Positions 2,971 to 11,990 of a DNA stretch of 11,990 nucleotides are shown here, one piece after another. The DNA comes from a virus (taxonomy: Duplodnaviria; Heunggongvirae; Uroviricota; Caudoviricetes): positions 1-11,990 of IMG/VR virus record IMGVR_UViG_2744054628_000002. One strand, written 5' to 3'. Below the pieces are notes generated by a model, which was given only the letters and a program-made list of their open reading frames with translations, had not been told where the DNA came from and did no database searches. The position numbers were made by a program, and so were the translations under genes. Each line of letters opens with the position of its first letter. Within the stretch, counting starts at the first letter, position 1.

Positions 2971-3145
2971 GGCTGCGGGTGCTTGAGGCTATCTGTCTCA
3001 GGCATGAACACCAAAGGCAGATAGAGAAAAGCCCCAGTTAACATTACGCGTCCTGCAAGACGCTTAACATTAATCTGAGGCTCAATCTATGAACGGCAAA
3101 TCTAGGTTAGCCTCTTACGTGCCGAAAGGCAAGGAGAAGCAGGCT

Positions 3146-3301
3146 ATGAAGCAGCAAAAGGCGATGTTAATCGCCCTGATCGTCATCTGTTTAACCGTCA
3201 TAGTGACGGCACTGGTAACGAGGAAAGACCTCTGCGAGGTACGAATCCGAACCGGCCAGACGGAGGTCGCTGTCTTCACAGCTTACGAACCTGAGGAGTA
3301 A
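3146..3301 (+). CDS. hok: Hok-family type I toxin (small membrane host-killing peptide), 51 aa
   Basis: Translation MKQQKAMLIALIVICLTVIVTALVTRKDLCEVRIRTGQTEVAVFTAYEPEE matches the Hok/Gef/RelF(HokD) family as I recall it: single TM helix and conserved C-terminal AVFxAYE. ATG 3146; AAGGAG at 3131-3136. The ORF-track start 3089 is an in-frame upstream ATG. Confidence 0.9.
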   Translation: MKQQKAMLIALIVICLTVIVTALVTRKDLCEVRIRTGQTEVAVFTAYEPEE

Positions 3302-4809: not shown

Positions 4810-5184
4810 ATGCGTATAGAGTTTGTTTTGCCTTACCCGCCGACGGTGAACACCTACTGGCGACGTCGTGGCAGCACATATTTTGTATCAAAAGCCGGTG
4901 AGCGTTATCGCCGTGATGTGGCGCTTATTGTTCGCCAGCAGCGACTGAAATTAAATCTGTCCGGAAGGCTGGCGATCAGGATTATTGTGGAGCCACCGGA
5001 TAAGCGTCGTCGCGACCTGGACAATATCCTGAAAGCACCGCTGGATGCGCTGACGCATGCGGGAGTGTTAATGGACGATGAGCAGTTTGATGAAATCAAT
5101 ATCGTTCGTGGTCAGCCAGTATCTGGTGGACGTCTGGGGGTGAAGATTTACCCCATAATGCATGAAGAGCAGGTCAAAAAATGA
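4810..5184 (+). CDS. rusA: RusA-family Holliday junction resolvase (endodeoxyribonuclease), 124 aa
   Basis: Conserved RusA signatures: N-terminal PPTVNTYW and catalytic-region RRRDLDN. AAGGGG RBS 4797-4802. Stop TGA 5182-5184 overlaps the Q start. Confidence 0.93.
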   Translation: MRIEFVLPYPPTVNTYWRRRGSTYFVSKAGERYRRDVALIVRQQRLKLNLSGRLAIRIIVEPPDKRRRDLDNILKAPLDALTHAGVLMDDEQFDEINIVRGQPVSGGRLGVKIYPIMHEEQVKK

Positions 5185-6002
5185 AACTGGAAGATTTACC
5201 GAAATACTACTCCCCAAAATCCCCTTGCCTGACCGATGCATCGGCCTCAACGTCAAAAGATGCGCTGAGTATCACTGATGTGATGGCCGCGCAGGGCATG
5301 ACACAGAATCGGGCTGAGATGGGGTTTTCTGCGTTCCTGGGGAAAATGGGCATCAGTATGAATGACAGGGCGCGGGCAACAGAATTACTGGCAGATTATG
5401 CACTCAGTCGGTGCGATCGTGTGGCGGCGTTGAGAAAACTTCCGGCAGAAATAAAACCGGTAGTGATGCGCATTATGGCTTCGTACGCTTTTGAGGATTA
5501 TGCCCGCAGCGCAGCGAGTAAAAAGCAGTGCCCTTGTTGCTATGGGGAAAAATTTATTGAAAGCGTAGTTTTTACAAACAAGGTCCAGTATCCGGATGGT
5601 AAGCCGCCGGTATGGGCAAAGTGTACGAAAGGTGTGTATCCGTCTTACTGGGAAGAATGGAAAAAAGTCAGGGAGGTGGTAAAAGTTGCCTGTCCGGAGT
5701 GTGGCGGAAAGGGTGAGGTTTCCACCGCCTGTAAGGATTGCCGTGGGCGTGGTGTCGCCATTCACCGTGAAGAGTCGGTAAAACGTGGTATGCCTGTTAT
5801 CAGAGACTGCCAGCGTTGTGGTGGTCGTGGCTATGAAAGACTACCATCAACGGAGGTATTTAATGCTATATGCGAGGTGACAAACCAGATAACACGCGCG
5901 TCATGGGAAAAAACAGTTAAGAAATTCTATGATGCGCTGGTGACCCGGTTTGATATTGAAGAAGCATGGGCTGAGCGGCAGTTAAAAAAGGTAACTAGGT
6001 AA
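5181..6002 (+). CDS. Q: late-gene antitermination protein Q (lambda Q family) with an expanded Cys-rich zinc-binding region, 273 aa
   Basis: N-terminus (KYYSPKSP...DVMAAQGM) and C-terminus (SWEKTVKKFYDALV...VTR) parallel lambda Q as recalled; central CPECGGKG, CKDCRGRG and CQRCGGRG repeats. A pR'-like promoter follows immediately. Confidence 0.88.
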   Translation: MKLEDLPKYYSPKSPCLTDASASTSKDALSITDVMAAQGMTQNRAEMGFSAFLGKMGISMNDRARATELLADYALSRCDRVAALRKLPAEIKPVVMRIMASYAFEDYARSAASKKQCPCCYGEKFIESVVFTNKVQYPDGKPPVWAKCTKGVYPSYWEEWKKVREVVKVACPECGGKGEVSTACKDCRGRGVAIHREESVKRGMPVIRDCQRCGGRGYERLPSTEVFNAICEVTNQITRASWEKTVKKFYDALVTRFDIEEAWAERQLKKVTR

Positions 6003-6007
6003 CAAGG

Positions 6008-6047
6008 TTGATTTTTCCGGAATCTGTGGTAAATTCGTCATAACGAT
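6008..6047 (+). promoter_or_regulatory. pR'-like late promoter with qut-like initial transcribed region
   Basis: -35 TTGATT (6008-6013), 16-nt spacer, TGg extension (6027-6029), -10 TAAATT (6030-6035); AACGATGGG at 6042-6050 resembles the lambda pR' pause-inducing element (AACGATGGG) as I recall it. Sits directly after Q. Confidence 0.5.
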
Positions 6048-6082
6048 GGGCGTTTTATGCCTGGCGTTAGAAGAGTTTCTAC

Positions 6083-6106
6083 AACCCGCCGCTGAGCGGG
6101 TTTTTT
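6083..6106 (+). terminator. tR'-like intrinsic terminator downstream of the late promoter
   Basis: AACCCGC (6083-6089), 6-nt loop, GCGGGTT (6096-6102) running into TTTTTT (6101-6106), then ATT. Confidence 0.6.
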
Positions 6107-6145
6107 ATTGCGAAATTAATTACGGACCGTTATTATTCTGCTCCC

Positions 6146-6221
6146 GGCCCTTTAGCTCAGTGGTGAGAGCGAGCGACTCATAATCGCCAGGTCGCTGGTT
6201 CAAATCCAGCAAGGGCCACCA
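6146..6221 (+). tRNA. tRNA with CAT anticodon (Met or lysidine-type Ile2), 76 nt, CCA encoded; probably the ileX/ileZ-like tRNA that lambdoid and Stx phages carry after Q
   Basis: Hand-folded cloverleaf: acceptor GGCCCTT/AAGGGCC, D-arm GCTC-AGTGGTGA-GAGC, anticodon loop CTCATAA (CAT at 6179-6181), T-arm GCTGG-TTCAAAT-CCAGC, discriminator A, CCA 6219-6221. Close to E. coli ileX as recalled. Confidence 0.85.
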
Positions 6222-6321
6222 TCACAAACCGCCATTAGCTTATCAGGAAGAGCAGACGACACGATAACAGGGTTGTTGGTGCGGGGGCGGGTCCCCGATG
6301 GCGGTCCATTATCGGTATTCA

Positions 6322-6366
6322 GCGTTGTTAGCTCAGCCGGACAGAGCAATTGCCTTCTAAGCAGCT
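6322..6366 (+). tRNA. tRNA-Arg(TCT)-like 5' portion (acceptor 5' strand, D-arm, anticodon arm); 3' half degenerate, so probably a tRNA pseudogene or fragment
   Basis: GCGTTGT-TA-GCTCAGCCGGACAGAGC-A-ATTGC-CTTCTAA-GCAGC gives a canonical D-arm and a TCT anticodon loop, but I find no T-arm (GGTTGCACTCC in place of GGTTCGAATCC) and no 3' strand complementary to GCGTTGT. Confidence 0.35.
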
Positions 6367-6731
6367 GTGGTTGCACTCCTGTTGTTTCTGGTGGTGATGG
6401 TGGACTTCAGCAGCCGGATAATGTCGGTGCTGTCTGATGGTGTTTTGGTGGCGGGTGTGTGGTTGTTGCTTTCCCGTTGCTGAAAAAGAAAGCATCAGGC
6501 GATTAGCAGGGTATCAGTTACCCGTTGAAATTTTTAAATACCTCACAATTCCACAGCTTGATGATTGTCTGGCTGCCGGAGAATTTGTTAAAAATTACAT
6601 CGCATGGTGAATCCCCCTGTGCGGAGGGGTAATCAGCGAGTAGGTATATGGGATAATCGCGGATTCAGGTGCTGGTACTGAATTCACCGGGAGGCACCCG
6701 GCACCATGCAATGGCACATAGCGCCACTCTC

Positions 6732-6759
6732 CAGCCCCTCTCCGGAGGGGCTGTTTATA
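6732..6759 (+). terminator. GC-rich hairpin followed by T-rich tract; candidate intrinsic terminator
   Basis: 9-bp stem CAGCCCCTC / GAGGGGCTG with TCCG loop (6732-6753), then TTTATATTGATTTTG. U-tract is interrupted, so strength uncertain. Confidence 0.4.
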
Positions 6760-6787
6760 TTGATTTTGTCAGATGTGAGTAAACTCC

Positions 6788-7123
6788 TTATGGACTTTGT
6801 TGTTTTAGTCCATAAGGACATATTTGCAGAATGCAACGGTTATTAAAGCATTCATTCAATACGTTATCTGTATTTGTAGGGCATTCCTGGCTGTTTTTGA
6901 TTAAATTCCAGAATGTTTTATTGAATGGTACTACGTTGTAAATGGTTACAGGTAGCACTTTGTTATTGAGCATGATGCCTGTGTGAGTCAGTGTAAATAT
7001 ACTTTCAGGAGGTAAGAAAGCATCCGATTGATACCAGATTATTAATTTTATTTTACTCCATATGACTGAAAAAGATATTCCGCATGATGGCTGGATAACT
7101 GTATCAATCACAATCCACTTCAT
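6788..7123 (-). CDS. hypothetical Cys-containing protein in AT-rich moron, 111 aa, no recognisable family
   Basis: ATG at 7123 (- strand) preceded by AGGA with ~6-nt spacer; stop at 6788-6790. Opposite strand to all flanking phage genes, AT-rich, and sits in the Q-to-S cargo slot. No signal peptide evident. Confidence 0.6.
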
Positions 7124-7382: not shown

Positions 7383-7571
7383 ATGGCATTTAAACACTAT
7401 GATGTTGTCAGGGCGGCGCCGCCGTCAGATCTTGCGGAAAAGCTGACACATAAACTGAAAGAGGGCTGGCAGCCGTTTGGTAGTCCGGTGGCCATAACCC
7501 CTTATACCCTGATGCAGGCGATTGCAGCAGAAGGTGATGTGGTGGTCAGCGGTGCAACTGAGCCGGAGTGA
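7383..7571 (+). CDS. small conserved lambdoid-prophage protein found upstream of lysis genes (possibly DUF1737-like); function unknown
   Basis: ORF 7368..7571; internal ATG 7383 has a better purine-rich RBS (GGTGGAAAGA). N-terminus MAFKHYDVVRAAPPSDLAEKL resembles small proteins I recall at this position; family name is tentative. Confidence 0.5.
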   Translation: MAFKHYDVVRAAPPSDLAEKLTHKLKEGWQPFGSPVAITPYTLMQAIAAEGDVVVSGATEPE

Positions 7572-7878: not shown

Positions 7879-8094
7879 ATGGACCAGATGGAAAAAATCA
7901 CAACAGGTGTGTCATACACCACGTCAGCGGTGGGAACGGGCTACTGGTTCCTGCAGTTGCTGGACAGGGTTTCCCCGTCTCAGTGGGCGGCAATAGGCGT
8001 GCTGGGGAGTCTGCTGTTTGGGCTGCTGACATATCTGACTAACCTGTATTTCAAAATCAGAGAGGACCGTCGTAAGGCTGCACGGGGAGAGTAA
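7879..8094 (+). CDS. S: class II holin / pinholin (phage 21 S-like), 71 aa, with dual-start motif Met1...Met4
   Basis: [15 protein letters not shown]...[40 protein letters not shown]: two TM segments plus charged tail, similar to S21 as recalled. GGGAGA RBS 7867-7872, 6-nt spacer. Confidence 0.85.
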
Positions 8095-9535: not shown

Positions 9536-9829
9536 TTATTGTGAGCAATACACACGCGCTTCCAGTGGAGTATAAATGCCTAAAGTAATAAAACCGAGAA
9601 ATCCATTTACGAATGTTTGCTGGGTTTCTGTTTTAACAACATTTTCTGCGCCGCCACAAATTTTGGCTGCATCAACAGTTTTCTCCTGTCCAATTCCCGA
9701 AACGAAGAAATGATGGGTGATGGTTTCCTTTGGTGTTACTGCTGTCGGTTTGTTTCCAACAGTAAACGTCTGTTGAGCACATCCTGTAATAAGCATTGCC
9801 AGAGCGGCAGAAAACAACATTTTTTTCAT
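9536..9829 (-). CDS. bor: Bor lipoprotein (serum-resistance / Iss family), 97 aa
   Basis: From ATG at 9829 (- strand): MKKMLFSAALAMLITGCAQQTFTV...LEARVYCSQ with lipobox ITGC; near-identical to lambda Bor as recalled. The ORF-track start at 9877 is an upstream extension. Convergent with Rz. Confidence 0.9.
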   Translation of the reverse strand: MKKMLFSAALAMLITGCAQQTFTVGNKPTAVTPKETITHHFFVSGIGQEKTVDAAKICGGAENVVKTETQQTFVNGFLGFITLGIYTPLEARVYCSQ

Positions 9830-10212
9830 CTTATTATCCTGCATTGTTAAAAACGGCAGAATCCTATGTGACAACAATTAAACGATAGTTAAATGGATTG
9901 ATGAAAATTAAAACTATATAGGTGGATGCTCAGCCTATCGGAGGTAGTCAGGATTTGAATGTCAGTCTGTTGTCGGCATTCTGGCAATGCAATTTGGATA
10001 AAGCGGGGATTAAAAAGATAGAGGCGAGCCGGTCAGGTAGAAATGAATCAGGCTCAAAGTGAAGCGGAAAAGGTCTGTGGCACAAGCTGATGCAGCCATA
10101 ATTACAGCCTGATGATTTGTGGAATGAAACATGTTGAACCTCCTTAATTGATGTTATTCGAGTGATGAAGGCATTCTGTCCTTCTATAGTGTCCAGTAAA
10201 TCAAACAGGAAA

Positions 10213-10234
10213 CTTGTCCAACGTGTTGGACAAG
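10213..10234. repeat. perfect 10-bp inverted repeat with 2-bp spacer (CTTGTCCAAC GT GTTGGACAAG), candidate operator
   Basis: Arms are exact reverse complements; additional TGTCC-containing half-site-like copies lie just upstream (~10177-10196). About 90 bp upstream of the G start. Confidence 0.5.
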
Positions 10235-10325
10235 CCTCTCCATTAGTGAGTTGTATTGATCACAACTCTACAAAGAATTCATTACTGGGTAGATGAAAAT
10301 AGTTTCACTATGAATGGAGGAGGCT

Positions 10326-10748
10326 ATGTCGGTGGCTTCTTCATTGGAGTACCGTCAGTTAATGAGGATAGATGTGATGACTAAAAATATCCGTAATCTG
10401 GCACTGGCAGCGATGTCGGGGTTTCGCCATAAAACTGTTGATGTGCCTGAATGGGAAGGGGCAACGGTTGTATTACGGGAACCTTCTGCAGAAGCCTGGT
10501 TGCGCTGGCAGGAGATCGTTAAAGCAAAAGATGATGAGACACCGTTATCCGTTGCGGAGCTCGCCCGCCGAAATCTGGAAGCGGATGTTGAACTGTTCAT
10601 CGATGTTCTGTGTGATACCGGACTGCAACCTGTATTTTCAGTGGATGATCGTGAACAGGTGATTGCCGTGTATGGCCCGGTGCATGCGCGGCTTCTTCGG
10701 CAGTCTCTGGAACTGATCAGTGATGCCGGCGAGGTTAAAAAAAAGTAG
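10326..10748 (+). CDS. G: tail assembly chaperone G, 140 aa
   Basis: ATG 10326 with GGAGG RBS (10316-10320); ORF ends EVKKK-TAG with the slippery heptamer A_AAA_AAG (10739-10745) just before the stop. The ORF-track start 10314 is an upstream in-frame ATG without a good RBS. Confidence 0.75.
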   Translation: MSVASSLEYRQLMRIDVMTKNIRNLALAAMSGFRHKTVDVPEWEGATVVLREPSAEAWLRWQEIVKAKDDETPLSVAELARRNLEADVELFIDVLCDTGLQPVFSVDDREQVIAVYGPVHARLLRQSLELISDAGEVKKK

Positions 10749-11050
10749 CGCTTCCGGGGATGCGTTTTCTGATGATGCTGGCGCTCAGGATGGGGCGCAC
10801 ATTGTCAGAGTTACGCCGGGAAATGTCCGCATCAGAAATCATGATGTGGGCAGAGTTTGACAGGTTCAGCCCGCTGGGGGACGAACGGGCTGATATCCGG
10901 GCTGCCCAGATTGTTTCAGCTGTTTACGGTGCGCAGGGGGTCAAAGTGCCACTGAATGATGCGCTTCTTCAGTGGGAGAAGGAGCAGACAGAAGGCGTAT
11001 CAGATCCATTTGCTGGACTGGAAAACGCGCTTTTAATAGTGTCTCAGTGA
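10739..11050 (+). CDS. T: T segment of the G-T tail assembly chaperone fusion, reached by -1 programmed ribosomal frameshift at A_AAA_AAG
   Basis: The -1 frame is open from the slip site through ...VALPGMRFLMMLALRMG... (ORF 10760..11050) to TGA 11048-11050. The fusion product would span 10326..11050. Confidence 0.7.
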   Translation, partial: KKVALPGMRFLMMLALRMGRTLSELRREMSASEIMMWAEFDRFSPLGDERADIRAAQIVSAVYGAQGVKVPLNDALLQWEKEQTEGVSDPFAGLENALLIVSQ

Positions 11051-11058
11051 GTCAACAT

Positions 11059-11990
<932 letters not shown>

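Follow-up and report, generated by a model that had tools for sequence, protein, structure and literature searches.

The stretch between the antitermination gene and the lysis genes of the prophage DNA analysed here (11,990 nt, hereafter the window) raises the question of which tRNA genes it once held, which of them survive and what became of the rest. A sequence-only reading had placed there an intact tRNA gene with a CAT anticodon and a truncated tRNA-Arg(TCT)-like remnant, and had related both to the ileZ-argN-argO tRNAs of Stx-converting phages. The location is borne out by the flanking genes: upstream lies a plus-strand ORF of 273 aa (5181-6002), the antitermination protein Q gene, annotated as 'antitermination protein' by RefSeq on an identical chromosome, followed by a tR'-like intrinsic terminator detected in a terminator scan (6083-6109, plus strand; 7-bp GC-rich stem and T run), and the holin gene lies downstream at 7879-8094. 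The same Q family precedes an intact module in phage Evi, with which the 6083-6109 region is conserved in alignment, and in the Nil3 record the interval from q to the tRNAs contains an annotated tR' late terminator.

The relation to the Stx-phage genes also holds, since a homologous cassette is annotated in Stx and related phages. A megablast search against phage genomes matched 376 records, mostly of Stx-converting phages with ileZ, argN and argO under the match, alternatively labelled as one tRNA-Ile/Met and two tRNA-Arg. Identity to the annotated cassettes of Nil3, Lahn2, Stx2a_1447 and phiP27, which occupy the corresponding position, is 83-92%. In the aligned relatives, Nil3 and PhiR49_2 carry ileZ, Arg-TCG and Arg-TCT, and phiP27 carries ileZ, an uncalled middle element, argO and stx2e. 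A literature search found no paper naming ileZ, argN or argO in a phage context; the names used here rest on GenBank annotations and on a report on tRNAs near stx2a, in which two tRNA-Arg and one tRNA-Met were noted (PMC7946995). As argued below, we consider it very probable that the region is a decayed ileZ-argN-argO cassette in which a tRNA-Ile2 gene survives, the argN slot holds a pseudogene and argO was cut by an event of about 650-660 bp.

The survivor lies at 6146-6221 (plus strand), carries the CAT anticodon and an encoded CCA end, and is the sole tRNA called by ARAGORN in the 11,990-bp window. It matches the Rfam tRNA family RF00005 over its full length (model positions 1-71) with 72.5 bits (E 1.2e-14), the gathering score being 29 bits, so that its earlier description as a canonically folding tRNA is confirmed by both programs. 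ARAGORN labels it tRNA-Met, a label repeated in several phage records, and an elongator tRNA-Met would not decode AUA. This label, however, is given because ARAGORN names a tRNA from its anticodon alone, and the rest of the molecule speaks against it. The gene is identical to K-12 ileX at 68 of 76 positions (89%), as against about 51 of 77 for metT and an identity of about 66% to metT/metU, and its acceptor pairs are C4:G69 and C5:G68, as in ileX, instead of the U4:A69 and A5:U68 of metT. The 4:69 and 5:68 pairs are major identity elements for E. coli TilS (PMC11947777). Additionally, PGAP (RefSeq) labels the gene tRNA-Ile in all E. coli genomes listed, and GenBank phage records name its homologue ileZ; it is 100% identical to the ileZ of Nil3 and PhiR49_2 and has one mismatch to that of phiP27. 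These features point to a tRNA-Ile2(CAU) rather than a tRNA-Met, and the latter identity appears highly improbable.

The TCT element is a different case. Over 6322-6363 (plus strand) it agrees at every position with the start of Nil3 argO, a tRNA-Arg(TCT) gene (nt 1-42; 42/42), and over the next 35 nt the identity falls to 6/35, the chance level. The retained 42 nt comprise the acceptor 5' strand, the D-arm, the 5' strand of the anticodon stem, the loop CTTCTAA and 3 nt of the 3' strand (GCA). Judged by its sequence, the truncated gene is a homologue of argO, which stands third in the module. ARAGORN called no tRNA at this element, and a permissive Rfam scan of 6000-6600 returned a partial tRNA match at 6331-6365 (model positions 10-42, 14.2 bits, E 6.7), below the 29-bit gathering score. 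Hence, neither ARAGORN nor Rfam recognizes a complete canonical second tRNA, and a functional argO product was not found, with only nt 1-42 of the gene present. The perfect D-arm and the missing T-arm and acceptor 3' strand described earlier both stand, but the anticodon arm does so only in part: it is native through the loop and the GCA, and the remainder of its pairing is a chance product of tciB sequence. The view of the remnant as a tRNA gene cut by a deletion is supported.

Phage matches, alignments and a junction probe place the cut, a deletion or illegitimate-recombination junction to which no strand is assigned, between 6363 and 6364, where …CTTCTAAGCA is followed by GCTGTGG…. The phiP27 match stops at 6363 and the match to tciB of JLK-2012 begins at 6364, with pairwise alignment in agreement, which corrects the breakpoint interval of 6366-6400 proposed from the sequence by moving it three bases upstream of that interval. 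At this position argO reads …AAGCA/ATCGG, tciB reads …CGCCTG/GCTGTGG and the window reads …AAGCA/GCTGTGG, with no microhomology. What follows is a tciB remnant (6364-6483, plus strand), recognized by translation against TciB of JLK-2012 and Evi, by Pfam and by PGAP. It begins at nucleotide 22 of tciB, the first 7 codons (21 nt) being gone; an in-frame TAA at 6358-6360, derived from the tRNA anticodon loop, directly precedes it, and a 1-nt deletion near 6459 shifts the frame into an early TGA. The remnant matches Pfam DUF3927 (PF13064) with 42.6 bits, above the cut-off of 25, over profile positions 11-39 of 53. A complete tciB frame of about 54 aa with its own start was not found in 6364-6483, where PGAP places a 'DUF3927 family protein' of 28 aa (6397-6483).

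The lost sequence can be read from undeleted relatives, namely Evi and IMG/VR loci of the L174 type, in which the order is ileZ, middle tRNA, argO, terminator, tciA and tciB; by Pfam, TciA is a TerB-domain protein and TciB belongs to DUF3927. Relative to Evi, the window lacks 659 bp, and 651-655 nt separate the flanks in L174, L215, L203 and L225. One non-homologous event, about 650-660 bp in extent, would thus have cut argO between 6363 and 6364 and taken away its 3' half, the terminator, the whole of the TerB-like tciA and the first 21 nt of tciB, so that two dead gene fragments, the 5' part of argO and the tciB remnant, are now fused. On this view, one old deletion left behind as debris both the tRNA pseudogenes, which are unannotated, and what PGAP calls a 28-aa 'DUF3927 family protein'. 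Given the loss of the argO terminator, transcripts started at the tRNA may run into the STnc100-like RNA downstream.

The anticodon stem-loop is a classic integrase target, and the break falls within it, as do the breaks of argN/argO chimeras of this module, in the anticodon loop. A mobile element integrated into argO with the anticodon loop as attachment site could therefore be imagined as the origin of the half tRNA. Nevertheless, to the right of the break there is neither an integrase nor a duplicated tRNA 3' part; instead, the sequence is tciB from codon 8 onwards, a gene that undeleted relatives carry some 650 nt farther downstream and equally oriented. The tRNA is not restored according to ARAGORN and Rfam, and neither program detects a further tRNA-like match in the window that could be the displaced argO 3' half. 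We rejected the integrase-site explanation on the grounds of the tciB flank, the missing integrase and the unrestored tRNA, and regard it as extremely improbable.

The anticodon loop is also where the cassette breaks elsewhere. Some modules of L139, L162, L184, L191 and similar IMG/VR loci have two called tRNAs and no strict match to the hairpin described below; at least one such sequence type is an argN/argO chimera joined in the shared GCCTTC/TAAGCA sequence, indicating that the cassette has broken repeatedly in the anticodon loop. L162 instead has the hairpin element with one base changed.

Between the survivor and the argO fragment, no third tRNA had been noticed. A third copy is nevertheless present at 6229-6308 (plus strand), an argN homologue missed by tRNA finders and recognized by its fold and by alignment to Nil3, PhiR49_2, Evi and phiP27, in which the aligned middle-slot genes are Arg-TCG in PhiR49_2, Lys-TTT in Evi and the same hairpin as in the window in phiP27. 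According to the alignment, the acceptor stem and D-arm are still there, as are the T-stem and the CCA end, and the positions of the anticodon arm and variable loop are taken up by unrelated sequence of about 26 nt. The anticodon arm has given way to a 9-bp hairpin whose triloop is AGG, and there is no anticodon loop. As in most copies, the T-loop has shrunk to GCGGGU, and its poly-G tract differs in length between copies, with 4 to 17 G. The element is recognized as a tRNA by neither ARAGORN nor Rfam, and the same is true of the phiP27 element despite its canonical T-loop. A G run of 4-17 is a mark of unconstrained slippage, and 6229-6308 is treated as a pseudogene; a functional second tRNA (argN, Arg-TCG) was not found there. 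The argN slot would thus have decayed through an unrelated hairpin overwriting the anticodon arm and through corruption of the T-loop. A search of 2.08 Mb of DNA from related phages revealed no donor of the 28-nt hairpin patch; it returned variant copies only, all in the same context.

Decay is not the only reading of this element, which could, alone or together with 6322-6400, be a functional non-canonical tRNA or tRNA-like RNA. Its predicted fold resembles a cloverleaf in which the D-arm, the CCA end and an acceptor stem of 7 bp are all present, and the hairpin patch hardly varies across more than 100 prophages and is shared by phage phiP27. This invariance, however, is partly ascertainment, the patch itself having been the search pattern, and the element has neither an anticodon loop nor a tRNA score. 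Furthermore, its fold is no better than that of shuffled sequences (z -1.3), its poly-G tract drifts between 4 and 17, and 6322-6400 folds worse than its shuffles (z +0.5), with a 3' part made up of coding-sequence debris. On balance, a functional RNA at either place seems very improbable, and we retain the pseudogene reading for both.

Across phages, the middle slot presents one backbone (C1-G72, U73 and the same D- and T-arms) with differing anticodon arms: Arg-TCG in 69 copies, Lys-TTT in 17, Arg-TCT in 1, by a point change, and the hairpin in more than 120. Besides the window, the slot was compared in L001 (724-800), L008 (1817-1893) and L002 (1624-1704) and in IMG/VR loci. The slot could conceivably be subject to anticodon swapping, with the hairpin form a retained tRNA-like RNA, e.g., a processing signal or an anticodon-nuclease decoy; we hold this to be improbable, and the drift of the poly-G T-loop argues against a function of the window's own copy. 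If the idea were correct, the cassette would be a record of an arms race with tRNA-targeting toxins or defences. The variety of anticodon arms may be taken as a lead and not as a finding.

The remaining question about the junction is whether it arose within one genome. The left flank is identical over 218 of 218 positions (window 6146-6363) to 85 L011-type loci, in which an intact argO follows, and 99% identical to L174, L215, L203 and L225, which combine the window-type hairpin middle element with tciA and tciB and in which ARAGORN calls an intact Arg(TCT); a strict argO sequence pattern missed the argO variant of these four loci. The tciB of the L174-type loci, however, is only about 81% identical to the window's right flank, which is 95% identical to the tciB of JLK-2012, where that gene follows Asn, Thr and Gly tRNAs. 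No relative is near-identical on both flanks, so the event was possibly inter-phage and not intramolecular. Additionally, the junction occurs with the hairpin element or with an intact argN (L190, L192, L210 and NCCP15648), and the same junction beside two different middle genes implies recombination in the module. Illegitimate recombination between two phages, instead of a deletion in one genome, would account for these observations. Against it, the elements follow one another exactly as they do in Evi and L174, in the same orientation, and in L177 an ileZ module occurs together with a tciB that shares 90.5% identity with that of the window, which makes an ancestor with both flanks plausible; later homologous exchange would explain the mixed affinities equally well. 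A two-phage origin is thus unlikely in our estimation, though still worth weighing beside a deletion, and the outcome for the tRNA genes is identical under either.

The age of the junction can be judged from its distribution. A 70-nt probe centred on the junction matched in full in 325 of 5426 complete E. coli genomes (about 6%). Any match was obtained in 2489 genomes, the non-full ones covering only the first 33-35 nt, in tRNA-Arg genes, and the 1279 genomes with at least 80% coverage were not taken as a junction count, as joined pieces may include undeleted forms. The window itself is identical to part of an about 25-kb ompW-inserted prophage of E. coli AF44, which lacks terminase, head and most tail genes. 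The same junction is present in the apparently complete prophages of JX4-T and NCCP15648, the latter with an intact argN, and some junction-bearing prophages still carry terminase, portal and capsid genes. It is also found in the phage-collection records vB_EcoS-640R1, 733R4 and related ones (partial genomes) and, among the 225 modules obtained by two exact-pattern scans of IMG/VR, in 6 loci with the hairpin element and 3 with an intact argN.

The same microhomology-free joint would hardly form on two separate occasions. Most simply, then, the event happened once, long ago, and homologous recombination has since moved its product into new combinations; the junction allele is an old, widespread variant of the module. 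Its presence in apparently complete prophages means that it does not date the decay of this defective prophage at the ompW site. Of the earlier description of the locus as a degraded relative of tRNA-bearing lambdoid phages, the homology is thus upheld, and the use of the junction to date this locus is not, the junction being an old circulating variant. The sequence CTTCTAAGCA followed by GCTGTGG is, at the same time, a handy marker for tracing late-region module recombination among lambdoid prophages.

The host prophage in ompW of AF44 (L232, NZ_OZ547155.1 1264841-1305361) spans from the ompW-adjacent integrase to the ompW 3' remnant beside yciE. It has a Rac-like early region with racR, a ydaT-family toxin gene, dicB and ydfA-C. 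Within the window, a hok/sok type I toxin-antitoxin locus is present, with sok at 2977-3151 (Rfam, 110 bits) and hokD at 3146-3301 (PGAP).

How the surviving tRNA would be expressed is suggested by its upstream sequence. The tR'-like terminator ends 37 nt before the gene, and a consensus scan detected a promoter-like TTGCGA-17 nt-TATTAT element on the plus strand (6108-6136, 9/12 matches), which ends 9 nt before it. In 186 modules, the 38 nt 5' of ileZ are conserved, mostly at 0.8-1.0 per column; beyond them conservation drops to about 0.5, and the neighbour there varies between Q/tR' and a DNA methylase. Conservation of these 38 nt despite differing upstream genes suggests a module-borne promoter, for which 6108-6136 is the putative site. 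Transcription of ileZ would start from this conserved element and/or come from Q-antiterminated read-through from PR'. The transcript would then be processed, host TilS would turn C34 into lysidine and IleRS would charge the tRNA.

A charged tRNA-Ile2 would read AUA, which is abundant in the prophage. Its CDSs contain 11.9 AUA, 8.1 AGA and 6.1 AGG per 1000 codons, as compared with 1.9, 1.6 and 0.0, respectively, in the flanking core genes, so that AUA is about 6 times commoner in the prophage genes than in the flanking chromosomal ones. AUA-decoding capacity is probably still supplied to the prophage by the surviving tRNA, to the presumed benefit of its AUA-rich genes, and AGA and AGG codons would now be read by host tRNAs alone. 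That both arginine codons are still heavily used without argO weakens a strict codon-compensation reading of the cassette.

Downstream of the tciB remnant, the window contains a strong match to the sRNA STnc100 (6572-6762, plus strand; Rfam 132 bits, gathering score 47), which ends with an intrinsic terminator at 6732-6753. Its core (at least window 6602-6710, approximately) is also found after the tRNA/cargo region in Nil3, PhiR49_2, JLK-2012 and Evi, and upstream of the lysis genes in those of these records that include them. Based on PGAP annotation of the identical chromosome, the other features around the module are an IraM-like anti-adapter gene on the minus strand (6788-7123; 6 AUA in 112 codons), a truncated N-terminal fragment of a DUF1737 (nanS-p-like) gene (7383-7568), iss/bor on the minus strand (9536-9829) and a tail-tip pseudogene directly after the lysis cassette (10002-11909). 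The last of these adjoins the lysis cassette, implying that the terminase-to-tail block was lost.

The segment between argO and STnc100 varies in other loci as well. L011 and 84 similar IMG/VR loci, the commonest relatives, have, at module positions of about 280-800, an AT-rich segment with an ORF of about 118 aa in the place of tciA after an intact argO, and their tciB is damaged in another way than that of the window. The argO-to-STnc100 stretch behaves as a cargo-exchange hot spot. The JLK-2012 record (L005 1730-1805) annotates tRNA-Asn, tRNA-Thr and tRNA-Gly after Q, and ARAGORN calls Asn and Gly only; the tRNA-Thr gene may be atypical.

Several minor candidates in the region were rejected. 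Weak Rfam matches on the tRNAs (YrlA at 16-20 bits against a gathering score of 69, Plastid-ycf2 antisense, SNORD103 and SAM_alpha) and on the tR' terminator (Trp_leader and isrK) are below threshold and are explained by tRNA-like and terminator features. The minus-strand ORFs at 6200-6376 and 6328-6495 overlap the tRNA debris and have no PGAP annotation.

Both the cassette and its location have long been known, as has the role presumed for it with rare codons, and the surviving gene is already annotated in RefSeq. What is new is the exact junction, the identity of the lost sequence, the middle pseudogene and the frequency of the junction allele. Overall, this is ordinary prophage decay and matters little beyond annotation.

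Compared with known tRNA genes of E. coli K-12, the surviving tRNA resembles ileX, a TilS substrate, in its length of 76 nt, its CAT anticodon, the 68 shared positions, the C4:G69 and C5:G68 pairs, A73 and the encoded CCA; it differs by eight substitutions, with one pair (6:67) compensated, and by being prophage-borne and located behind a phage late terminator. The argO fragment shares its anticodon and D-arm pattern with K-12 argU, tRNA-Arg(UCU), to which it is identical at 31 of 42 positions over the retained part, but it belongs to the phage argO lineage and lacks everything 3' of the anticodon loop.

Among phages, 933W also carries ileZ-argN-argO. The Stx cassettes of Lahn2, Nil3 and Stx2a_1447/WGPS2 occupy the same site as that of the window, after Q/tR' or a methylase and before cargo and lysis genes, with homologous spacers and an argO whose 5' half is identical. 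Unlike them, the window has ileZ alone intact, a pseudogene in the argN slot and an argO cut after nt 42, and it carries no stx, its cargo being the tciB remnant, the STnc100-like RNA and the IraM-like gene. The Stx2e phage phiP27, a functional phage, has the same hairpin form of the argN slot and is 92% identical over window 6106-6363, but its middle element has a canonical T-loop, its argO is intact and stx2e follows directly. Finally, Evi (LR597642.1) shares the 273-aa Q family and the PR'/tR' region with the window and, like the L174/L215-type loci, presents ileZ, argO, terminator, tciA and tciB in undeleted order; it differs from the window in having a tRNA-Lys(TTT) as its middle gene, a tciB about 81% identical to the remnant and about 659 bp more sequence.
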